This document shows, in pieces, positions 1-11,263 of a DNA stretch of 11,263 bases. Every line of letters starts with the position of its first letter. Position 1 is the first letter of the stretch. Origin of the DNA: a virus (Duplodnaviria > Heunggongvirae > Uroviricota > Caudoviricetes); the IMG/VR virus record IMGVR_UViG_2925914267_000008, positions 1 to 11,263 of that record. One strand, 5' to 3'. The position numbers were made by a program, and so were the translations under genes. The notes below the pieces were generated by a model that was not told the origin of the DNA, ran no database searches, and was given only the letters and a program-made list of their open reading frames with translations.

Positions 1-1066
1 GTGGCCCTCAGTGATACCAAACTTCGTAGCATCAATGGTAAGCCCTACAGCGGCGCACCCGAAGTCACAGATGGTGACGGTTTGAGTGTGCGTATTACTC
101 CGACTGGAACGATTACATTTCAGCATCGATATCGCTGGAACGGTAAGCCTGTTCGCCTCTCTGTCGGCCGGTATCCTGCAATGTCCCTCAAAGAGGCCCG
201 CGTTATCGTCGGTGAGATGCGCGAATTGTACCTCAAGGGGCTAAACCCTAAAAATTATTTTGCCAAAGAAGATGGCGAGCTAACGCTCAAAGAGTGCCTG
301 GATCAGTGGTGGACTAAGTATGTTGAAACGCTGAAGCCTAATACCCAGACGCTGTATAAGTCGGTTGTGTACAACACCATGTACACAGAGTTCCCGGACG
401 CACCGGTCGTAAACATCCCCGTTTCGGCTTGGGTAAGGTTCTTCGACAAGCAGGAGAAGAAAAACGGGAAAAAGGCTCGGGTGCTGCTGCTCCAACTCCG
501 ATCCGTAATGAACTGGTGTATCAGCCGTCAGCTGATCCCTTCGTGCGAGGTGCTGAAACTCAGCGTTAAGACCATCGGCAAGAAACCAGACGTTGGTAGC
601 CGGGTACTCACTTATACCGAGCTGGCAAAAATCTGGTTAGCGCTGGAAAACAATAAGGTCGTTAGCTCCAATAAGGTTCTTCACCAGTTGCTGTTGCTCT
701 GGGGTGCGCGATTATCCGAACTGCGCCTGGCCACCGCAAGTGAGTTCAATATGGGCGATCTGATTTGGACGACGCCAGCCGAGCATTCCAAAATGGGAAA
801 TGTTATTCGTCGGCCTATATTCGACCAGGTTAAACCTTACATTGAAAGGCTTCTCAATGCTGGGAACGATATTCTTTTCCCGGGTCAGGAACTGGACAAG
901 GCTATAGATCGCTCCTCAGCCAATCTCTACATGAAAAAGTTAAGGGATAAAATTGATATACCGGAATGGCGAACCCACGACTTCAGGCGTTCTCTGGTAA
1001 CGAATTTGTCAGGGGAGGGGGTTATGCCCATAAGCGCTAACTTAAGGGTTGTGGTATTACGCCTGA
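1..1066 (+). pseudogene. P4-family tyrosine integrase, 3'-truncated by IS1
   Basis: GTG start at position 1. The N-terminus (MALSDTKLRSINGKPY...GDGLSVRITPTGTITFQHRYRWNGK...GRYPAMSLKEARV) fits the arm-binding domain pattern of P4-type integrases. An HxxR-like box (THDFRR) is present near the end, but the frame runs into the IS1 inverted repeat and stops at 1069-1071 before any catalytic tyrosine. Confidence 0.8.
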
Positions 1067-1089
1067 GGTAATGACTCCAACTTATTGAT
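1067..1089. repeat. IS1 terminal inverted repeat (insB-proximal end)
   Basis: Matches the canonical IS1 terminus as recalled; it is the imperfect inverted partner of 1812-1834. Confidence 0.85.
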
Positions 1090-1585
1090 AGTGTTTTATG
1101 TTCAGATAATGCCCGATGACTTTGTCATGCAGCTCCACCGATTTTGAGAACGACAGCGACTTCCGTCCCAGCCGTGCCAGGTGCTGCCTCAGATTCAGGT
1201 TATGCCGCTCAATTCGCTGCGTATATCGCTTGCTGATTACGTGCAGCTTTCCCTTCAGGCGGGATTCATACAGCGGCCAGCCATCCGTCATCCATATCAC
1301 CACGTCAAAGGGTGACAGCAGGCTCATAAGACGCCCCAGCGTCGCCATAGTGCGTTCACCGAATACGTGCGCAACAACCGTCTTCCGGAGCCTGTCATAC
1401 GCGTAAAACAGCCAGCGCTGGCGCGATTTAGCCCCGACGTATCCCCACTGTTCGTCCATTTCCGCGCAGACGATGACGTCACTGCCCGGCTGTATGCGCG
1501 AGGTTACCGACTGCGGCCTGAGTTTTTTAAGTGACGTAAAATCGTGTTGAGGCCAACGCCCATAATGCGGGCAGTTGCCCGGCAT
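1082..1585 (-). CDS. insB: IS1 InsB reading frame (expressed as InsAB' by -1 frameshift)
   Basis: The translation ...[70 protein letters not shown]... matches IS1 InsB. It overlaps the insA 3' end in the -1 frame. Confidence 0.85.
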
Positions 1586-1779
1586 CCAACGCCATTCATG
1601 GCCATATCAATGATTTTCTGGTGCGTACCGGGTTGAGAAGCGGTGTAAGTGAACTGCAGTTGCCATGTTTTACGGCAGTGAGAGCAGAGATAGCGCTGAT
1701 GTCCGGCGGTGCTTTTGCCGTTACGCACCACCCCGTCAGTAGCTGAACAGGAGGGACAGCTGATAGAAACAGAAGCCAC
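1504..1779 (-). CDS. insA: IS1 InsA (transposition inhibitor, N-terminal part of InsAB' transposase)
   Basis: The 91-aa translation [43 protein letters not shown]... is the IS1 InsA sequence as I recall it. Confidence 0.9.
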
Positions 1780-1811
1780 TGGAGCACCTCAAAAACACCA
1801 TCATACACTAA

Positions 1812-1834
1812 ATCAGTAAGTTGGCAGCATCACC
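1812..1834. repeat. IS1 terminal inverted repeat (insA-proximal end)
   Basis: Reverse complement reads GGTGATGCTGCCAACTTACTGAT, the canonical IS1 left end. The insA start lies 55 nt inside it. Confidence 0.85.
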
Positions 1835-2907
1835 CGACTTACGGTGAGCTGAAAGTCTGTGTTGACGGAGAATTTCGGGTCAGCACATCGAAGAGTGAAG
1901 GGCGTATTGTCCGCTTTGACCTGAAGTTTGTCGAAGCGGGAGAACTCTCTTACCCCACATCAGGTGCGGCGACGGCGCAGACGCTGATGTCATCCTGTTC
2001 TGCACTGGATGACTGCATCAGTGACAGTTTCAGTAGTTTCAGTATCGATGGCGTGGCAGATTTTGTGCAGAACGATGTCGTCGGTAATGCCAGCACAATG
2101 CTTGGGTATGTTTCTGATGCGATGAAAGTGGTGGATTCTGCCGTATCGGATGCCGCCAGGCTGTTGCAGGGGGATATCTCGGTACTTCTGCCGCCGCCAT
2201 CGTCAGGCAAAAATTTCGTTGAGCAGGTGCAGAAAATGTGGCGTACCGGGAAACGCCTTTATGGTAACGCCAGCGACCTGGTCACCATGATCAAAACGCT
2301 TTCCGGTGTCAGCCTCGGCAGCGATCTGCAACCGCGCGGCGTCTGGAAAACGGACAGTAAAACCACCGCCACGGCGACGCAGCAGCGTAACGTGGTTGCC
2401 AGCACCCTTCGTATGACCGCAATCAGCGAAGCGGCGTATGCCGTTACCCGATTGCCTGCGCCAACAACTTCTGCGGTGATGCAGAATGCCGCAGTGGGGC
2501 AGTCAACAACACCCGCGCAGAGCTCCGGCTGGCCTGCCGTCACGCATCCGGTGCTGAACAATGCACCGGCGGTGAAAAACACGGTTGACCTGCCAACGTG
2601 GGAAGAACTGACCGACATTCGCGACACACTGAATATGGCAATTGATAAGGAGTTGTCCCGTACAACCAGTGATGCGCTGTTTCTGGCGCTGCGCCGGGTG
2701 AAAGCAGATCTGAATGCGGATATCAACACGCGCCTTGAACAGTCTGCTCGGATCATTCAGCGCACGCCGGATGAGGTTTTACCCGCGCTGGTGCTGGCGG
2801 CGACCTGGTTTGATAACGCGGCGCGTGACGCGGACATTATCCGGCGTAATGCCATTACGCATCCCGGCTTTGTGCCGGTGATCCCTCTGAAGGTGCCAGT
2901 GCAATGA
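1835..2907 (+). pseudogene. Mu-type DNA circulation protein (N/gp43-like), 5'-truncated at the IS1 junction
   Basis: Frame 1 is open from the IS1 boundary at 1835 through the stop at 2905-2907. The first ATG is at 1987, with no plausible start or RBS before it. It sits directly upstream of the gp44/P-like gene, as in the Mu order N-P-Q. The family call rests on synteny and general resemblance, not on a search. Confidence 0.55.
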
Positions 2908-3983
2908 ACGACAATGTCACGCTACGGGTAAATGGCCGGGAGTGGAATGGCTGGACATCGGTGCGCATCGGTGCCGGTATTGAACGGCTGGCGCGGGATT
3001 TCAGCGTGGAGATCACCCGCCAGTGGCCGGGAGATGAGGGTATCACCACGCTTCAGCCGCGCATTAAAAATGGTTCAAAAGTGGAAGTGCTGATTGGTGA
3101 TGAGCTGGTGATCACCGGCTGGGTGGAGGCGACCCCCGTTCGTTACGATGCCCGTTCGGTCAGCACCGGTATTGCCGGACGTAGTCTGACTGCTGACCTG
3201 ATTGACTGTGCAGCCGAACCGACACAGTTTAACGGACGATCGCTGGTACAGATTGCGCAGGCGCTTGCTGCGCCTTTCGGCATTGAGGTGGTGAACAACG
3301 GTGCGCAGTCGGGTGTTATTCCTGACGTCCAGCCCGATCACGGTGAAACGGTGATTGAGGTAATCAACAAAATACTCGGTCAGCAGCAGGCACTGGCTTA
3401 CGACGACCCGCACGGCAGGCTGGTGATTGGTGGTATTGGCTCAACGCGGGCACATACTGCGCTGGTACTCGGGGAAAACATCCTTTCCTGCGATACGGAG
3501 AAGAGTATCCGGGAGCGGTTTTCAGTTTACCAGGTGGCGGGGCAGCGTGCCGGAAACGACGATGATTTCGGTGAGGCCACCACCACCGCGCTGCGGGCCC
3601 GCACAGAGGACGCATTTATTGCCCGTTACCGTCCGATGTATATCAGGCAGACAGGGCAGGCTACGGGGGCAGGCTGTATTGCCCGTGCGGACTTTGAAGC
3701 CCGACAACGGGCGGCGCGGACGGATGAAACCACCTATGTGGTGCAGGGCTGGCGACAGGGTAACGGTACGCTGTGGCAGCCCAACCAGCGGGTGATTGTC
3801 TTTGATCCGGTCTGTGGTTTCGACAATACCGAACTGCTTGTTTCGGAAGTCACGTTTACTCAGGACCAGAACGGCACCCTGACGGAAATCCGTGTCGGCC
3901 CGCCTGATGCTTATCTGCCTGAACCCGAAGCCCCCGGCGCGCGGAAAAAGAAAAAAGCCAGAGTACAGGAGGACCCGTTCTGA
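2904..3983 (+). CDS. Mu gp44 (P)-like baseplate hub protein
   Basis: 359-aa ORF whose start overlaps the upstream stop (ATGA at 2904-2907). Size, position and sequence character fit the Mu P/gp44 baseplate family. Confidence 0.75.
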   Translation: MNDNVTLRVNGREWNGWTSVRIGAGIERLARDFSVEITRQWPGDEGITTLQPRIKNGSKVEVLIGDELVITGWVEATPVRYDARSVSTGIAGRSLTADLIDCAAEPTQFNGRSLVQIAQALAAPFGIEVVNNGAQSGVIPDVQPDHGETVIEVINKILGQQQALAYDDPHGRLVIGGIGSTRAHTALVLGENILSCDTEKSIRERFSVYQVAGQRAGNDDDFGEATTTALRARTEDAFIARYRPMYIRQTGQATGAGCIARADFEARQRAARTDETTYVVQGWRQGNGTLWQPNQRVIVFDPVCGFDNTELLVSEVTFTQDQNGTLTEIRVGPPDAYLPEPEAPGARKKKKARVQEDPF

Positions 3984-4531
3984 TGAGGACGATTGAAGCC
4001 ATGCAGCGACAACTCCTCGGCCTGATTGGGCGGGCCGTGGTGAAAAGCATCAGTGCCGCCACGAAATGTCAGACCGTGGATGTGTTCCTGATTGCCGGTG
4101 AACCCAAAGCCGGGGTTGAACATCTTGAACCCTACGGTTTTACCGCAAGGGCAAACAGCGGTGCGGAAGCGGTGGTGTTGTTTCCGGATGGCGACCGTTC
4201 TCATGCGGTGGTTGTTACGGTGTCGGACCGTCGCTACCGCCTGAAAGGGCTGCAGACGGGTGAGGTGGCTGTCTATGACGATCAGGGGCAGTCCGTGACG
4301 CTGACCCGGGAGGGGATCGTGGTGGACGGTGCAGGTAAAACGATCACGTTTCGCAATGCACCTGAAGCACGTTTTGAAATGGACCTAGAAGTGACAGGAC
4401 AGGTGAAAGACCTGTGCGACTCCGGCGGCACCACCATGTCAGCGATGCGGCTTGCCTATAACGGGCATAGTCACAGAGAGAACGGTCAGGGCAGTAACAC
4501 CGACAAACCGGATAAAGCGATGGAGGCATGA
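3983..4531 (+). CDS. Mu gp45-like baseplate spike/assembly protein (gpV-type)
   Basis: 182-aa ORF whose start overlaps the upstream stop (TGATG at 3981-3985). Size and position fit Mu gp45. Confidence 0.75.
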   Translation: MRTIEAMQRQLLGLIGRAVVKSISAATKCQTVDVFLIAGEPKAGVEHLEPYGFTARANSGAEAVVLFPDGDRSHAVVVTVSDRRYRLKGLQTGEVAVYDDQGQSVTLTREGIVVDGAGKTITFRNAPEARFEMDLEVTGQVKDLCDSGGTTMSAMRLAYNGHSHRENGQGSNTDKPDKAMEA

Positions 4532-4956
4532 TGGAACTGTGGCTGACGGTGAACGGTAAACGCACCTGCGCCAGCGCACCGCTGGATCCGCTGACCCGCG
4601 CCGTGGTGATTTCCCTGTTTACCTGGCGGCGGGCGGAGCCTGATGACAACGCCGACGTCCCGATGGGATGGTGGGGGGATACCTGGCCTGCGGTACAGAA
4701 TGACCGTTACGGCTCCCGACTGTGGCTGCTTCAGCGCAGCAAACTGACCAATCAGCTGGTGCAGACGGTAAGGGGGTATATCCGCGAATGCCTGCAATGG
4801 ATGATTGATGATGGCGTGGTGTCCCGTATTGATCTGGATATCCGCCGCACCGGGATTAATGAACTGGGTAACAGTATCACTCTCTGGCGTCGTGACGGAC
4901 CGGTAATGATTTCTTTTGATGATCTGTGGAGTGCGATAACGCATGGCGGACAGTGA
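4528..4956 (+). CDS. Mu gp46-like baseplate protein (GP46 family)
   Basis: 142-aa ORF with ATGA overlap to the upstream gene. Size and synteny fit Mu gp46. Confidence 0.75.
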   Translation: MMELWLTVNGKRTCASAPLDPLTRAVVISLFTWRRAEPDDNADVPMGWWGDTWPAVQNDRYGSRLWLLQRSKLTNQLVQTVRGYIRECLQWMIDDGVVSRIDLDIRRTGINELGNSITLWRRDGPVMISFDDLWSAITHGGQ

Positions 4957-6001
4957 ATTTCAGCGCCCGACGCTGGCAGAAAATATCAGTATGCTCCGTA
5001 ACGATTTATTCGCCAGGCTGGACGTCAGCGACACGCTCCGGCGCATGGATGAAGACGTGCGGGCAAAGGTGTATGCGGCGGCGCTGCATACGGTTTACGG
5101 GTACATCGATTATCTGGCAATGAACATGCTGCCTGACCTGTGCGATGAGTCCTGGCTGGCGCGACATGCTGCGATGAAACGGTGTCCGCGCAAGGGGGCC
5201 ACGGCTGCCAGCGGGTATATGCGCTGGGAAGGTGTCAGCGATGGCCTGAAGGTGACCGCCGGGAGTGTTATTCAGCGCGATGACCTGGTTCAGTACACGG
5301 CAACTGCTGATGCAACCAGCTCCGGTGGTGTCCTGCGCGTGCCGATCACCTGCTCAACTACAGGCGTGGTCGGTAACGCTGACGACGGTACGGCATTAAT
5401 CCTGGTCACGCCGGTGAATGGTCTGCCGTCTTCCGGCGTGGCAGATACACTGACAGGTGGATTTGATACTGAAGAGCTGGAAACGTGGCGCGCCCGCGTC
5501 ATTGAGCGGTATTACTGGACGCCTCAGGGCGGGGCTGACGGGGACTATGTCGTCTGGGCTAAAGAAGTACCCGGCATTACCCGCGCATGGACATACCGAC
5601 ACTGGATGGGAACGGGGACTGTCGGTGTGATGATTGCCAGCAGTGACCTGATTAATCCCATTCCGGAAGAGTCAACGGAAACGGCGGCAAGACAACATAT
5701 CGGGCCACTGGCCCCGGTGGCAGGCTCTGATTTGTATGTATTCAGGCCGGTGGCGCATAAAGTGGATTTTCATATCCGCGTGACGCCGGACACACCGGAA
5801 ATACGGGCTGCCATCACCGCCGAGTTGCGTTCGTTCCTGCTGCGTGATGGTTATCCGCAGGGAGAACTGAAGGTGTCACGTATCAGTGAAGCGATTTCCG
5901 GTACGAACGGGGAATACAGCCATCAGTTGCTTGCCCCGGCGGACAATATCTCCATTGCAAAAAATGAGCTGGCGGTTCTGGGGACGATTTCATGGACGTG
6001 A
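4943..6001 (+). CDS. Mu gp47-like baseplate wedge protein (Baseplate_J family)
   Basis: 352-aa ORF overlapping the previous gene by 14 nt. Size and synteny fit Mu gp47 / P2 gpJ-type proteins. Confidence 0.8.
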
Positions 6002-6576
6002 CAAACGATGATTATATCCGTCTGTTGTCGGCACTGTTGCCGCCCGGTCCGGCGTGGTCAGTCAGCGATCCGGCGATTGCCGGTGCGGCACCGTCATTAA
6101 CCCGCGTTCATCAGCGTGCGGATGCCCTGATGCGGGAGCTGGATCCGCGCACCACCACTGAACTGATAAACCGCTGGGAGCGTCTGTGCGGTCTGCCGGA
6201 TGAATGTATTCCCGCAGGGACACAGACCCTTCGCCAGCGTCAGCAACGGCTGGATGCGAAGGTTAATCTGGCGGGCGGCATCAATGAGGATTTTTATCTT
6301 GCACAGCTTGCTGCCCTGGGCAGACCAGACGCCACTATCACGCGATACGATAAAAGCACGTTCACCTGCTCATCGGCCTGTACTGACGCAGTGAATGCGC
6401 CGGAATGGCGGTATTACTGGCAGGTCAACATGCCAGCCGCCACCAACACCACCTGGATGACATGTGGCGATCCCTGTGATTCCGCACTGCGTATCTGGGG
6501 CGACACCGTTGTCGAGTGCGTGCTTAACAAACTCTGCCCTTCGCATACCTACGTAATTTTTAAATATCCGGAGTAA
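5992..6576 (+). CDS. Mu gp48-like tail protein (DUF2313 / YmfQ-like)
   Basis: 194-aa ORF overlapping the previous gene by 10 nt. It resembles the YmfQ/gp48 family found just upstream of tail-fibre genes in Mu-like and e14-like tails. Confidence 0.75.
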
Positions 6577-6579
6577 TCC

Positions 6580-7092
6580 ATGCATCGTATAGACACGAAA
6601 ACCGCGCAGAAGGATAAGTTCGGCGCGGGTAAGAACGGTTTTACCCGTGGTAACCCCCAGACCGGCACACCTGCCACCGATCTGGATGATGACTACTTTG
6701 ACATGTTGCAGGAAGAACTTTGTAGCGTTGTTGAGGCATCCGGTGCCAGTCTGGAGAAGGCGCGGCACGACCAGCTGCTTACCGCACTTCGTGCGCTGCT
6801 GTTAAGCCGCAAGAATCCGTTTGGCGATATCAAATCGGATGGCACTGTGCAAACGGCTCTCGAAAACCTTCAATTGCGAGAATCATTCACAGGTGTGGTT
6901 GGTCAGGCCGTTAACCAGAAAATGAGCGTGGCAATAGCGTCGGCATCAGCAACATTCACCGCTGACCAGGTTATTGTTGGTGAGTCATTATCTGGCAAGC
7001 AGTACCGTGTAAGTTCGGTAAGCGAAACTATCAACCTCACCACGACTGGGGCGGGCGGGATGGATACAGGAGCAGCCCCTGCCAGTGGTTGA
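6580..7092 (+). CDS. Phage tail fibre protein, N-terminal part, ending at an in-frame TGA
   Basis: The start [47 protein letters not shown] is a conserved tail-fibre N-terminus. The ATG is 4 nt after the gp48-like stop, with GGAG upstream. The frame ends at TGA 7090-7092. Confidence 0.7.
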
Positions 7093-7626
7093 GTTGCTAT
7101 TTACCTTATTTACAACCCAACGACCAACACCTCAGCATTACTTGGTGTTAACACGACAACCGTCGTTGCGCCCACAGTCTACGGCGGTGCAAACATGCCA
7201 GCGGGATATACGGCGAGCGCACTCGTATCCGTCTGGAGAACAACAAGCGGCTCTTTGCTTCTGAATGGGTACCAGCGAGGTCGAAAATTTTGCATCCCGC
7301 GTGTAGATGTACTGACCACAAGCAGTAACCCAGGACCATACTCACCAATCCCTCTTAGCGCAGCCGTACCGCTAAACGCTATAGCAGCGAGTGGTTACGC
7401 ATTCTGTAACTCAGGCTCTGGTTCTGGGTTTGCGGTTTTGTCTGTCGGGTCTGATGCAAATGGGCTTGGGTATTTTCAGGTGTATGCCGGGCTGGTTGGT
7501 TCGCTAGGGAGCGATATCTATTTTGAGAATACCCTCGCTGAACCTCAAAAACTTTACTACACGTTTACCTGGACAACGCCAGCAGTGTCAAATGCCACCA
7601 TTGGGATAAGCGGTTATACGATCTAA
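7093..7626 (+). pseudogene. Tail fibre distal part, in the same frame as 6580..7092 across one TGA
   Basis: Same frame as the upstream tail-fibre ORF, with no further stop from 7093 to 7626. The 34 codons between the TGA and the first ATG (7195) read as Thr/Asn/Ser/Val/Gly-rich, fibre-like sequence, and there is no RBS ahead of 7195. Confidence 0.45.
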
Positions 7627-7636
7627 GGAGTGAATT

Positions 7637-7804
7637 ATGTCTGTTGTATATGTGCAGTTCTCTGATGAGAAAGAAACAGAAATTGTCTCTGTTTTTGCAT
7701 CTCCGGCCGACCCGGATTACTACCAGTTTTTGGGGGAGGTAGAGGGGGATGATGAGCGGCTTAAAATCTTTTGGAAGCAATTCCCTCAGCATGCCGTAGG
7801 TTGA
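7637..7804 (+). CDS. Hypothetical small protein (55 aa), not in the ORF track
   Basis: ATG at 7637 is preceded by AAGGAG at 7625-7630 with 6-nt spacing. Translation: MSVVYVQFSDEKETEIVSVFASPADPDYYQFLGEVEGDDERLKIFWKQFPQHAVG. It sits directly after the tail fibre, where assembly chaperones or cargo genes usually lie. I do not recognise a family. Confidence 0.4.
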   Translation: MSVVYVQFSDEKETEIVSVFASPADPDYYQFLGEVEGDDERLKIFWKQFPQHAVG

Positions 7805-7994
7805 TTGGATAATAAGTCGCTAGGTGAGAACTGGCGGATAATTTTTCTAGATAAGTTTTTAGCAACCAGCATTCCTGTTTTTTATATCCAGGATTTTGGT
7901 TTACAGTACTTATTTTTAACTGTATTGAGGATGGCGAAAACAGATTGAAAATTACATCCAGATCACCCAATCGATAATCAACCATTATAAAAAA

Positions 7995-8014
7995 GGCTCC
8001 CTTTTTAGGGAGCC
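7995..8014. terminator. Intrinsic terminator hairpin between convergent genes
   Basis: Perfect 8-bp stem GGCTCCCT / AGGGAGCC with a TTTT loop. On the minus strand it is followed by TTTTTTATAA, 9 nt downstream of the acyltransferase stop. On the plus strand it is preceded by an A-run, with only a weak T-tract after it. Confidence 0.65.
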
Positions 8015-8022
8015 TTGTGTGG

Positions 8023-9273
8023 TTATATTTTTGCTTTGCTGATAAAATTATCTAGGGTTTTTCCTACGGTGCGGCTAAGTATCACTGATTTTTTCTCTAT
8101 TAATTGATAAAATATCATTGAACCAATTAAAGAAAGAGTGACGAATACTAAAAAGGAAGCAATGTATGCTAAATAAACGTTATTTGTATGAATATATACA
8201 TATAGGTTTATTGGCATTATTGCAGATGAAAGAACTAACCAGTGAACAAGGTATAAAGAGAAAGAAATTTTCCCAAAAAATTGAACAAGTTTAGTGGATA
8301 GGAAATCGCGAATGTATCCTCTGGACATTACTAGAATTAGCAATAATATTGCACCGACACCACGTAAAAACTCGTATGGGTGGTAAGGGAACATCCCAGG
8401 AATCGATAAGTCTTGCATGTTTATTAATGGGGCAACAAAATAGTTCCCTGGTATAAAAATCCAACCCCAGGGATAGAATACCGGGCAACTTTGAAGTATC
8501 ACTATAGCTAATATCATTAGCAAAGTAATAACGTATTTTTCTTTGTTGTTAAATAAATTGCTTGTTTTTTCGTCGGCAAACAAGATGGATATCCATGCGC
8601 CAATGAGAAGAAAAAACACATAATATCCGTAACTAAAGATAGTAAATAAAAATAATAAAAGAATGCCATGCCTTGAGTTATTTCTTCCTACCTGAGCAAC
8701 AATTAATAGTAACAGCGAGCCCATAAACTCAGTCGACATTGACCATATTACAGGGTTAAGAAATCTAGTTGAAAAATCTGTGGTATATAGCGTAAGAATG
8801 CCTTGCTTTATTACTTCATCGAAAGCTACATTTTCATCGTGATCATAACGAAATCCAGATTTTACTAAGATATATCCAATAATACAGGAAGCAAATACAG
8901 GAACACCAAGTCGAATAAAACGACGTATTAATGATGCTATAAATGTTGTATTTGCTTTGAAGGCGCCAAGAAGAATTGCGCCAGATAAGATGAAAAAAAC
9001 TATAGTAGCAAAATTACCATTGATAGTGAATACGAATGGTGTCGTTTCAGTAAATTCGTAGAATTTTGAAAGCCAATAAGGGAATGCATCTGGGTAGTGT
9101 GAAAGCATAAAAAGCTTTGTTTCACCAAAAAAATGACCATAAGCAACAATTATAGCCATTAGTCCGCGTAACCCATCAAAATATAGGATTCTGTTCTTTT
9201 TTTGTTCCAATTTATTGAACCTCATCATTTCAAAATAGTGAGCAATGATAGTGTTAAGAGTGTAGTAAAGCAA
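8023..9273 (-). CDS. Acyltransferase family 3 integral membrane protein (Oac/OafA-like O-acetyltransferase candidate)
   Basis: The N-terminal motif RILYFDGLRGLMAIIVAYGHFFGE and the later FFILSGAIL segment are typical of the acyltransferase-3 family. The protein is very hydrophobic with many predicted helices. The gene is AT-rich (roughly 30% GC) against GC-rich neighbours. The start is uncertain: TTG at 9273 with GAAGG upstream, or ATG at 9228 or 9225. Confidence 0.85.
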   Translation of the reverse strand: MLYYTLNTIIAHYFEMMRFNKLEQKKNRILYFDGLRGLMAIIVAYGHFFGETKLFMLSHYPDAFPYWLSKFYEFTETTPFVFTINGNFATIVFFILSGAILLGAFKANTTFIASLIRRFIRLGVPVFASCIIGYILVKSGFRYDHDENVAFDEVIKQGILTLYTTDFSTRFLNPVIWSMSTEFMGSLLLLIVAQVGRNNSRHGILLLFLFTIFSYGYYVFFLLIGAWISILFADEKTSNLFNNKEKYVITLLMILAIVILQSCPVFYPWGWIFIPGNYFVAPLINMQDLSIPGMFPYHPYEFLRGVGAILLLILVMSRGYIRDFLSTKLVQFFGKISFSLYLVHWLVLSSAIMPINLYVYIHTNNVYLAYIASFLVFVTLSLIGSMIFYQLIEKKSVILSRTVGKTLDNFISKAKI

Positions 9274-9396
9274 TGCCTTCTGGAATCGAAGTTAAAACAA
9301 CGGAGCTTAAATTAGTTGAAGTGAGATTTGCTAATAAAGGTAATAAATTCAATCAATTACTTCTTGAGGGCGTATTGGTGTTAAGAAGATTTTAAC

Positions 9397-9405
9397 ATTG
9401 TATCA
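9397..9405 (-). promoter_or_regulatory. Possible extended -10 element (TGATACAAT on minus strand) upstream of the acyltransferase
   Basis: TGnTACAAT motif about 125 nt upstream of the acyltransferase start in AT-rich DNA. No clear -35. This is a sequence-pattern guess only. Confidence 0.2.
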
Positions 9406-10232
9406 CATACCACGGGGGCATTCTGATGAAATCAGAAAAATAGACAGGGTAATAGCTATCGATTGATGATGGTGGTTGCTATGCTTCATATAGAGTTTCC
9501 GATACTATCACGCACATTATTAATGATAGCAGAACGGTGGAGTTTAATGGTTGGCCAAGCCTTGTTGAACAATGGTTAATCATGCTGTTTTAATATACCT
9601 TCTTTGGAGAAAAATGCTAACAACTCCAACGTGCATTGCCCGAGATTGGCTGTAACCATAATAATTTTATGGAGTTTATTGAATAAACCCGAGTTAGTAG
9701 ACAGGATGACGCCTACCGGAACACCCGTTATGCGATGCGGACGCTGTCCGGCATACCCAGCACGGTCATCCGGTTTAGCGCTTTGACCATCGCCGTTTCT
9801 GCCACTGAACGACGGTGATAACCCACTTTCTTTTTCCAAACATAATTGCTGGATAGGGTCAGGGTTATTATGATGCTTGGAATTATCGAACGCTGCCGCA
9901 GAATGTTAGAGAACGGAGCAATCCGGCAACGTGATCGGTGTGGGGGTAAAGACGATTTATAAATACTTTCCTGTCACAAGTCCAGCGCGTAATGCCAGTT
10001 CCCGAGTGTAGGTATGATCATGAAAAAGTGGTGCGCACCTAAATATCTTTAATACAGGCGTAGGATGCCATGCATTAGGATCGGGTTAAACAGGGATGTT
10101 TACGTTCTGGAAAACTGCCCGCAGATAGCCGGCGTGATCTAGAATGATTTTTGTGTACATATATGTGTACTGTACAAAAGAAGATTTGGCTTTTAATTTC
10201 AATAAAAACAATAAATTGAATTGTTTTTAAAA

Positions 10233-10255
10233 TATATCCATTTAACTAAGAGGAC
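10233..10255 (-). tRNA. argW: tRNA-Arg (argW) 5' fragment, first 23 nt only
   Basis: The minus strand reads GTCCTCTTAGTTAAATGGATATA, identical to the first 23 nt of E. coli argW as I recall it, and lies 75 nt downstream of yfdC as expected. The next bases (TTTTAAAAACAATTC...) are AT-rich and cannot form the rest of a tRNA. Confidence 0.55.
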
Positions 10256-10330
10256 AATGCGGCATGAGTATACCCGCTAATGGAGTGCGGGGTAAGTACG
10301 CTGCCGCTCGATTGCTTAAACCCTCGCCAT

Positions 10331-11263
10331 TTATGCCGGGTTTTTATAATTTTTCTTAATGTTTTCCGCACGTTCTGCTTTTTGGCGTGCTTCTGCTTTA
10401 CGCTTATTGCTCATGTCGTTACGAATCTGTGCATGACTCATTAACGCGAAGATAAAGGTGCCGCCGCAGATGTTCCCCGCTAAAGTAGGTAGTGCGAAGG
10501 GCCAGATGAAATCGCTCCAGTGCAGCGTACCGTTAAACACCAGATAGAGGATTTCAACAGAACCGACCACGATATGGGTGGTGTCACCCAGGGCAATAAG
10601 CCAGGTCATCAATATAATCACCACAATCTTTGCCGCACCCGCTGCAGGAAACATCCAAACCATAGTGGCGATCAGCCAGCCGGAAATGATCGCGTTGGCA
10701 AACATCTCGCTGGGGGTGTTCTTCATCACATCCATGCCGATTTTGACAAATGCATCGCGAGTTTCTTCATTGAAGATAGGCATATATTCAAATGCCCACG
10801 CCGCAATACCTGTCCCGAGAATATTACCCAGCAGCACGACGCCCCATAACCGTATAAGTAAGCCGACGTTGCTCATTGTCGGTTTTTGCATGACGGGTAG
10901 TACCGCAGTCACGGTATTTTCGGTAAATAATTGCTGGCGGGCCATAATGACGATAATAAAACCAAAGGTATAACCGAGATTCTCCAGCAAGAAGCTGCCC
11001 GGCACACCTTCCAGTTCGACTTGAAATATCCCTTTTGCCAGTAACGAAGCGCCCATCGACAGACCCGCCGCAATGGCTGACCACAGTAGCGCCATTGCGT
11101 CGCGTTCCAGCTCTTTTTCACCATCCTGGCGGATATGCTCATGAATTGCCATCGCCCGGGAGGGGAGTCGGTCTTCATCTATTTCTATTTTTTTGCCGCG
11201 CTCTTTTTCTTCGCTCTCAACTTCAATTTCGTCGCTGTGTTGATCAATTTTGTCGTTGTCCAT
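10331..11263 (-). CDS. yfdC: Formate/nitrite transporter family inner membrane protein YfdC
   Basis: The 310-aa translation (MDNDKIDQHSDEIEVESEEKERGKK...NYKNPA) matches E. coli YfdC as recalled. It is a full-length ORF whose start codon is the last three bases of the window. Confidence 0.9.
   Translation of the reverse strand: MDNDKIDQHSDEIEVESEEKERGKKIEIDEDRLPSRAMAIHEHIRQDGEKELERDAMALLWSAIAAGLSMGASLLAKGIFQVELEGVPGSFLLENLGYTFGFIIVIMARQQLFTENTVTAVLPVMQKPTMSNVGLLIRLWGVVLLGNILGTGIAAWAFEYMPIFNEETRDAFVKIGMDVMKNTPSEMFANAIISGWLIATMVWMFPAAGAAKIVVIILMTWLIALGDTTHIVVGSVEILYLVFNGTLHWSDFIWPFALPTLAGNICGGTFIFALMSHAQIRNDMSNKRKAEARQKAERAENIKKNYKNPA

Follow-up and report, generated by a model that had tools for sequence, protein, structure and literature searches.

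Deletions made by IS1 are familiar from classical work on gal and lac. When an insertion sequence (IS) lacks a target-site duplication, adjacent deletion or recombination between two IS copies is a known cause, and the IS150 'IS-del' events of the Lenski LTEE leave the IS complete, precise at its ends and free of a duplication (PMC11708052). In such deletions one flank is retained and tens of kb alongside it are lost. The 11,263-nt stretch of DNA analysed here, referred to throughout as the window, is alike in all of these respects. It differs in that one deletion endpoint lies inside another IS (nt 38 of IS186), therefore two different ISs acted in sequence; the order of these steps is read from the sequence of the window, not from a time series.

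The window also resembles CPS-53/KplE1 of E. coli K-12, likewise a defective remnant of ~10 kb at yfdC/argW-dsdC with cargo of the O-antigen-modification type. However, the integrase family differs, att is the 3′ end of argW in CPS-53/KplE1 as against argW nt 6-23 in the window, and the two prophages lie on opposite sides of the complete tRNA. CPS-53 retains an intact intS and torI and can excise, in contrast to the window remnant with its dead integrase. The remaining close relatives are phages of the SfV group, whose att site is thrW (as opposed to the argW D-arm in the window) and whose integrase also differs. The module extending from N to the tail fibre is about 97.6-97.7% identical at the nucleotide level between the window and phages SfV, SfII, SfIV and SfI. 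In the SfV group and in the oacC-carrying SfII-like prophage of S. flexneri 6 (PMC4206707), a gene of the O-antigen-modification type is found past the tail-fibre genes and beside att, an arrangement shared by the window.

The window carries the degraded remains of a lambdoid prophage whose contractile tail is of the SfV/Mu type; these reside in argW of E. coli, within the dsdC-yfdC interval (Table 1). We consider it likely (probability roughly 0.85) that IS186 entered the integrase gene, that an IS1-associated loss of ~25-35 kb followed and that a dead remnant of ~10 kb was left at argW. The scar is an ordinary insertion-sequence scar, a phenomenon that is already known, and current understanding is not challenged; only two leads are of wider interest, namely that IS186 may contain a hotspot for IS1 and that the att site lies in the 5′ half of argW. 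The locus provides a clean worked example of two different insertion sequences domesticating a prophage stepwise, with the tail/baseplate module and a low-GC acyltransferase cargo surviving.

Table 1. Features of the window, with positions, strand and the evidence for each assignment.
Feature	Position	Strand	Evidence
P4-type tyrosine integrase, first 343 codons, pseudogene	1..1028	+	Pfam, alignments
Left copy of 10-bp IS186 target duplication GGGTTATGCC (inferred)	1019..1028	.	intact target in L023
IS186 left-end stub: 23-bp terminal inverted repeat + 15 nt = IS186 nt 1-38	1029..1066	+	identity
Complete IS1, 768 bp; IRR left, IRL right	1067..1834	-	termini, ORFs
insB′, 167 aa, overlaps insA	1082-1585	-	ORF in IS1
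insA, 91 aa	1504-1779	-	ORF in IS1
Mu-N-like DNA-circularization / tail gene, 3′ 1073 nt, codons 86-442	1835..2907	+	alignment to L004, L010
SfV/Mu-type baseplate and tail-fibre genes kept: gpP/gp44-like, gp45, gp46, gp47/J, gp48, tail fibre	2904..7626	+	Pfam; nucleotide identity to SfV-type phages
Cargo acyltransferase (Acyl_transf_3)	8023..9210	-	Pfam; att-proximal end of prophage
argW 5′ stub, tRNA nt 1-23	10233..10255	-	k-mer and sequence comparison, K-12 argW and L001
yfdC, chromosomal flank	10331..11263	-	Pfam Form_Nir_trans; K-12 annotation

Within the integrase pseudogene, Pfam recognised an Arm-DNA-bind_3 domain and a partial Phage_integrase domain (profile positions 2-145 of 172 covered), and integrase homology stops at 1028/1029. 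An intact allele was found on an IMG/VR contig (L023), which is 100% identical to the window over nucleotides 1-1029 and in which the ORF runs on (...HVTEKMLGHELGGVMAVYNKHDW...) to 389 aa. Comparison with this allele, and alignment to the 389-aa homologue of E. coli MB07152, reveals that the window copy ends after HDFRR...GVMP and is without the last 46 residues, including the LGH and AVYNKH segments and the catalytic tyrosine; it therefore lacks the complete catalytic set R-K-H-R-H/W-Y of a tyrosine recombinase. The original prediction that the C-terminus had been lost together with its tyrosine is thus borne out by alignment to full-length homologues, although the truncation is attributable to an earlier IS186 at G4N6C4 and not to the IS1 event that had been credited with it.

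A closer inspection of the 38 nt that precede IS1, a flank previously taken for the 3′ end of the integrase, revealed IS186 nt 1-38 (38/38 identical to K-12 IS186B, with divergence exactly at the IS1 start). An IS186 element has the 23-bp repeat CATAAGCGCTAACTTAAGGGTTG at both ends, a length of 1.34 kb and InsL; the window holds only the left 38 nt, with the transposase gene and right end gone, and this is a stub, not an element. Insertions such as K-12 IS186B are complete, but have in common with the stub their terminal sequence, a G4N6C4 target and a 10-bp duplication. Complete copies in K-12 and in an IncY plasmid (L019) occupy GGGG-N6-CCCC targets flanked by the 10-bp duplications GGAGTAATCC and GGATCTCTCC. 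The intact target in L023 is of the same type, reading GGGGGTTATGCCCCATGTC (GGGG-GTTATG-CCCC), and the window stub abuts ...GGGTTATGCC. We infer the duplication at the window IS186, because the right-hand duplicate has been deleted.

The annotated 356-aa 'integrase' ORF consists of 343 integrase residues and 13 more encoded by the IS186 end and across its junction with IS1, whose terminus supplies the stop codon (TAA). The annotation of WP_205717028.1, a 356-aa 'tyrosine recombinase', should therefore read chimeric pseudogene. At the level of gene annotation, an ORF that runs into IS1 and stops there is what would be expected if one IS1 event, without the help of any further element, had both cut the integrase short and fused it straight to N, which is how IS1 had first been interpreted. 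This version has virtually no likelihood left, being refuted by the 38-nt IS186 terminus before IS1 and by the end of integrase homology at 1028; what is joined to N is the 38-bp IS186 stub.

The IS1 copy has the length typical of the family and imperfect inverted repeats of ~23 bp (GGTGATGCTGCCAACTTACTGAT / GGTAATGACTCCAACTTATTGAT). Its terminal repeats are canonical (GGTAATGACTCC... and ...GGCAGCATCACC) and the A6C -1 frameshift motif is present (AAAAAAC at IS1 nt 307). It shows 4 differences from the IS1 of L004 and of L017, and 7 from that of L007. The element starts at 1067 and not at 1068 as initially proposed, and the left 9-mer given at that time (ACGCCTGAG) contains the first G of IS1. 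The correct flanks, TACGCCTGA (1058-1066, IS186 nt 30-38) and CGACTTACG (1835-1843, N nt 257-265), match at 0/9 positions, and no direct repeat arises when the IS1 boundaries are shifted by 1-2 nt or 8-bp duplications are assumed. The 9-bp (rarely 8-bp) target-site duplication that IS1 family members leave after simple insertion is thus absent, as first noted, and this IS1 copy is the junction of two different targets. Overall, the original observation of a complete IS1 without duplication, set between an integrase without its C-terminus and the interior of N, is upheld, with the exception of the IS1 start and the identity of the left flank.

On the right, the breakpoint falls at nt 257 (codon 86) of the 1329-nt gene found at full length in L004 and L010, confirming that this flank is the interior of an N-like gene; the first 256 nt (85 codons) are missing. 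Full-length copies match PF07157 (DNA_circ_N), whereas the truncated product (356 aa) has no Pfam match and is without the N-terminal DNA_circ_N domain that characterises Mu gpN within a full-length protein of ~442 aa. The truncated N ORF was not on record in an exact-protein look-up. A 4-nt microhomology between the IS1 end and N (CACC in L004) was dropped as a candidate, since the nearest relative, L010, has CATC.

L010, a metagenome scaffold, aligns without gaps to window positions 1835-11263, showing 6 SNPs in 9429 nt, and has the same yfdC/argW junction. It contains a full N, upstream of which are 8.9 kb of late genes encoding the tape-measure, assembly chaperone, tube, sheath, terminator, head-closure, connector, capsid and protease. 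In L023 the intact integrase is followed by Dam, Gp157, RecT, an S24 repressor, YdaT, O, P and Bro/Ant. Although on separate contigs, L023 and L010 probably represent two halves of one ancestor, judging from their identity to the window (100% and 99.9%, respectively), and the lost interval would be about 25-35 kb. Compared with L023 on the left and L010 on the right, the window lacks early, replication, lysis, head, sheath/tube and tape-measure genes, as had been anticipated. Moreover, the integrase and late genes of the window are co-oriented, as they are in the argW prophage of E. coli MB07152 (L006), which is intact and 45 kb long; therefore the two window flanks are colinear, as a deletion predicts. 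The intact relatives thus agree with the view that IS1 marks a deletion junction and no simple insertion: the left flank runs on in L023, late genes precede the right flank in L010, the orientation is that of the MB07152 prophage, and a defined interval lies between the flanks in intact relatives.

IS-bounded inversions are frequent in IS1-rich E. coli genomes, and recombination between IS1 copies could in principle have moved or inverted the prophage interior elsewhere in the chromosome. This is very unlikely, as an inversion would have left N and the integrase on opposite strands, yet the two share the + strand, just as they do in intact relatives, and a translocation requires extra events. 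Only a little less unlikely is an assembly artefact, in which two IS1 copies (one in IS186, one in N) flanking an intact interior were collapsed into one. Such a collapse would likewise leave IS1 without a duplication, and the only independent contig with the same left junction, a draft, stops 486 nt inside IS1. However, the chimeric 356-aa ORF is recorded for E. coli on two contigs, one of which is chromosome-sized (4.8 Mb), the reciprocal junction is absent from all searched collections, and a nonsense mutation in the tail-fibre gene fits a decaying remnant.

The deletion can be placed in a probable course of events. IS186 first inserted at integrase codon 343/344, in a typical GGGG-N6-CCCC target, and in doing so already took the His and catalytic Tyr segment out of the reading frame. 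IS1 then joined IS186 nt 38 to N nt 257. Both junctions coincide exactly with IS1 termini, which argues that IS1 transposase acted on a target in making each of them, in which case the two 9-bp flanks would be the targets. This second step would have removed the rest of IS186 (nt 39-1339), the final 46 codons of the integrase and nt 1-256 of N, together with the early-left, immunity, replication, lysis, head, sheath, tube and tape-measure genes. We favour loss of the interval in one step, by intramolecular replicative transposition (adjacent deletion) of an IS1 resident at one of the two sites. Alternatively, IS1 copies may have inserted in the same orientation in IS186 and in N, each with a 9-bp duplication, and then undergone RecA-dependent recombination. 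The latter route differs only in the manner of interval loss, with the other steps common to both, and predicts an identical product (a complete IS1, half of each duplication, colinear flanks); duplications are documented to go missing through IS-IS recombination (PMC11708052). The two-step route is a serious possibility but the less probable one, as it needs two insertions and a recombination against one insertion and one intramolecular event, and no relative with either single IS1 insertion was found.

Neither junction of an int::IS186 intermediate with a complete IS186 was found when both were searched for, and the N::IS1 right junction was absent from 5,426 complete E. coli genomes, GTDB representatives, JGI metagenomes and IMG/VR. 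Searches for the left junction in E. coli genomes and plasmids were negative except for an IncY plasmid analogue, and the junction predicted for IS186::IS1 with its right-hand duplicate (IS1-TACGCCTGA-IS186) was not found. The 9-mers first put forward for a partner search should be replaced by TACGCCTGA and CGACTTACG. The former is present in every IS186 copy and, because it is common to all of them, is not diagnostic.

A near-identical junction is found in 13 E. coli records, where IS186 nt 1-37 is followed by the IS1 IRR and the orientation is the same; this could suggest that a chimera of IS186 stub and IS1 formed once and spread, so that the window and IncY plasmids share it by descent. 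We regard this as extremely unlikely. The junctions are 1 nt apart (nt 37 versus nt 38), with IS1 termini of GGTTATG and GGTAATG; each stub occupies an IS186-type target of its own, and relatives keep a complete IS186 at the plasmid site. Moreover, many other plasmids also have the plasmid IS1 as a resident on the stbA side, and no transposase is known that acts on one IS186 end and one IS1 end. A search of plasmid p1506-1 for a cointegrate signature or reciprocal junction found no IS186 remainder. There are two independent IS186 copies with an IS1 junction, one in the prophage integrase (nt 38) and one in the IncY phage-plasmid backbone (nt 37), with the same orientation, different IS1 variants and different far-side partners. 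A rough calculation gives a chance of about 1/1000 that endpoints placed at random in 1339 nt would lie, as a pair, within 1 nt of each other and in the same orientation. We tentatively suggest that the IS186 left end (nt 29-38, TTACGCCTGA) might be a preferred IS1 target, doubtful as this still is; if true, IS186 copies would be landing pads for IS1-made large deletions or replicon fusions.

Both att cores survive in the window. The remnant, which has a dead integrase and retains neither xis nor an early region, is unable to excise by itself, in line with the original prediction, and the locus should be annotated as a fixed, non-inducible remnant, not as a prophage. The retained baseplate and tail-fibre genes share 97.4-98% nucleotide identity with the listed SfV-type phages, including SfV, SfII, SfIV and SfI. 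The tail-fibre gene carries a nonsense codon at 7090-7092 (W171* relative to L010), and in a third step the remnant decayed further through this mutation. Contigs with the W171* allele (L103-L105) end at window positions 2337 and 5361; nested IS1 deletions were considered there, but assembly breaks are more likely, as IS1 overlap is absent at these ends. A suspected invertase remnant at 9925-10008 had no Pfam match and a single weak 12-aa match by tblastn. The acyltransferase gene is of low GC (about 33-35%) and its protein is identical in L010; no Shigella-phage relative was found in the phage collection, where the best match was a Pantoea phage protein (26% identity).

Positions 10233-11263 are 100% identical to K-12. 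The att core corresponds to argW nt 6-23 (10233-10250), with K-12 argW and L001, which has a complete int-proximal tRNA, serving as the references for the argW comparison. Lying in the 5′ half of argW (the D-arm), this att site is an unusual one.

In all comparisons made, the integrase stays homologous to its relatives only as far as 1028/1029. The 38 nt that follow, CATAAGCGCTAACTTAAGGGTTGTGGTATTACGCCTGA, match the left end of the E. coli K-12 element IS186B at 38/38 positions, and the window and IS186B diverge precisely at the IS1 start; IS1 therefore adjoins IS186 nt 38 and not the integrase. The original prediction, in which IS1 itself touches and truncates the integrase, thus does not hold. 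At the insertion site, the IMG/VR contig L023 (UViG_2703718829_000006), in which the integrase is intact, reads GGGGGTTATGCCCCATGTCACTG, i.e. GGGG-GTTATG-CCCC. Complete IS186 copies have the targets GGGG-AGTAAT-CCCC in K-12 and GGGG-ATCTCT-CCCC in an IncY plasmid, each flanked by a 10-bp duplication of the form GG-N6-CC. The stub adjoins GGGTTATGCC, the same arrangement as in these complete copies, and this shared geometry shows that IS186 entered the integrase through its own normal mechanism.

The L023 integrase allele is 100% identical over window 1-1029, and the full-length protein is 389 aa both there and in the homologue from E. coli MB07152 (85% nucleotide identity). In the annotated 356-aa ORF, 343 integrase residues are followed by 13 encoded by the IS186 end and its junction with IS1, and the IS1 terminus provides the TAA stop. 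The 46 missing residues (HVTEKMLGHELGGVMAVYNKHDW...) contain the conserved His and nucleophilic Tyr, and the Pfam Phage_integrase match spans profile positions 2-145 of 172 only. The expectation that this integrase, which belongs to the known P4-type, is truncated and dead was therefore confirmed, with no full-length integrase or catalytic Tyr before 1066.

Direct reading of window 1000-1900 places the start of the IS1 right terminal repeat, GGTAATGACTCCAACTTATTGAT, at 1067 and the end of the complement of its left terminal repeat, ...AGTAAGTTGGCAGCATCACC, at 1834. The element of 768 bp retains the A6C frameshift motif and differs by 4-7 nt from IS1 copies at other E. coli loci; it had been described correctly except for its left boundary, which was set one base too far right. 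The 9 nt outside IS1, TACGCCTGA on the left (1058-1066) and CGACTTACG on the right (1835-1843), match at 0/9 positions, in agreement with the predicted absence of a target-site duplication.

To the right of IS1, alignment to the 'DNA circularization protein' (N) gene of SfV-type prophages (1329 nt) begins at window position 1835 and at nt 257 of the gene, which leaves N without its first 85 codons and one base. The truncated product has no Pfam match, whereas full-length copies match PF07157. A 4-nt overlap (CACC) with one relative at the junction was dismissed as meaningless, the closest relative having CATC. A related SfV-type prophage, at a tRNA-Pro site in E. coli EC_J_9, also contains an IS1 in the same orientation (L004 20001-20768), within the small ORF that separates the tape-measure gene from N. 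This independent insertion lies ~350 bp ahead of the N start codon, and the point at which N is broken in the window is ~600 bp downstream of it.

Two ENA metagenome scaffolds, L010 and L015, were recovered by looking up exact matches to the baseplate protein. L010 aligns gap-free to window 1831-11263, with 6 differing positions in the 9429 nt past the junction (1835-11263), and ends as the window does with the acyltransferase, argW stub and yfdC. Its N gene is complete and is preceded by an unnamed ORF and then by tape-measure, tail-assembly, tube, sheath, tail-terminator, head-closure, connector, capsid and protease genes. In L023 the intact integrase is followed by Dam, Gp157, RecT, a LexA-like repressor, YdaT, O, P and a Bro/Ant protein. 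In E. coli MB07152 the same site is occupied by a prophage of 45 kb whose integrase is related and lies on one strand with the late genes; the window IS1 flanks are therefore colinear and co-oriented, as expected of a deletion, which excludes an inversion. Together with the intact relatives L023 and L010, this upholds the view that IS1 marks a deletion. Sequence comparison puts the lost DNA at at least 10.0 kb on the left and at least 8.9 kb on the right, and the full extent of both contigs gives ~28 kb if they do not overlap. Since no single record has both halves, we infer that ~25-35 kb was lost in total, in addition to 1.3 kb of IS186, leaving ~9.6 kb of phage DNA compared with 37-45 kb in relatives.

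IS1 is joined to its flanks at its exact termini on both sides, and each junction is therefore the work of IS1 transposase on a target; the two targets were IS186 nt 30-38 and N nt 257-265. In the route we favour, adjacent deletion, an IS1 already at one site would have transposed replicatively into the other within the same molecule. The same product would arise if IS1 had entered both sites by simple insertion and the two copies had then recombined; the data do not separate the routes, and the one-step route is preferred only because it needs fewer events. Both processes are established causes of insertion sequences without duplications (PMC11708052). Searches for intermediates were negative throughout, covering 5,426 complete E. 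coli genomes, PLSDB, GTDB representatives, JGI metagenomes and IMG/VR. Assembly collapse of two IS1 copies into one would look identical to a deletion, and the left junction is independently recorded in a single contig (GCA_001912615.1), which stops 486 nt inside IS1. However, the chimeric 356-aa protein is on record from two E. coli contigs (WP_205717028.1), one of 4.8 Mb, which speaks against collapse, as does the tail-fibre nonsense mutation W171*.

Coordinates of features in the window and in related records
Feature	Position	Strand	Remarks
insB'	1082-1585	-	167 aa
insA	1504-1779	-	91 aa
Tail-fibre gene	6580-7626		TGG>TGA (W171*) at 7090-7092 vs L010
Acyl_transf_3 gene	8023-9210	-	low GC (~33-35%), adjoins att
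argW stub, yfdC side	10233-10255	-	tRNA nt 1-23 only
Complete tRNA-Arg(CCU)	L001 (GCA_001912615.1) 9731-9805	-	195 bp upstream of integrase, divergent
IS186/IS1 junction region, IncY-derived multiresistance plasmids	L017 4002-4807; L018
Complete IS186, same plasmid site, related IncY plasmids	L019/L020 3351-4689		10-bp duplication present

A parallel arrangement, in which IS186 nt 1-37 runs directly into the right end of an identically oriented IS1, occurs in 13 E. coli records, nearly all IncY-backbone multiresistance plasmids, with one copy in a chromosome record. On the far side of the plasmid IS1 is DNA in which, on plasmids of several backbones (two inspected), IS1 is resident at the same point. 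Here IS1 has clearly transposed into IS186. The plasmid junction differs from that of the window by one nucleotide (nt 37 vs nt 38) and its IS1 terminus reads GGTTATG vs GGTAATG; the two events are therefore independent. Two same-orientation junctions within one nucleotide (n=2) suggest that the IS186 left end is a preferred target, or hotspot, for IS1.

The repeated att core lies in the D-arm of argW (nt 6-23, CTTAGTTAAATGGATATA), and not at the classical argW 3′-end site used by Sf6, HK620, KplE1 and Kapi1. The 5′ end (U2C, U5C) and upstream region of the complete tRNA are phage-supplied. The same geometry is found in E. coli MB07152 and in 17/19 IMG/VR loci with 94-96% identical integrases. 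Each component of the remnant falls into an established category. It combines IS1 and IS186 with a P4-type integrase and an SfV-type tail module, and this decaying prophage has undergone an IS-associated deletion.

The tail module shares 97.4-98% nucleotide identity with the listed SfV-type phages, including SfV, SfII, SfIV and SfI. Apart from W171*, an allele found on 10 further contigs, the five remaining differences from L010 are synonymous, four of them in the acyltransferase gene. Next to att, where the acyltransferase gene lies, SfII/SfV-like phages have O-antigen modification genes of the gtr or oac type. The acyltransferase has its best protein match in the phage database at 26% identity (Pantoea phage PA-1), and none of the 5,426 complete E. 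coli genomes has a DNA match to 6871-10232 (3.4 kb); the gene may encode an O-antigen acetyltransferase not yet characterised. In a further assembly with the W171* allele (GCA_049983065.1, L105 3735-3811), an IS1 end in the opposite orientation adjoins the acyltransferase gene at window ~9094, and IS1 has therefore struck the remnant on at least two occasions within the population. Lastly, the peptide VGVKTIYKYFPV (9940-9975, + strand), also present in L010, resembles the extreme C-terminus of a Gin/Pin-type invertase beside the L012 tail-fibre genes. A Pfam search of this region gave zero matches and the similarity is weak (9/12, tblastn E = 0.035); the peptide may be a relic of a fibre-inversion system.
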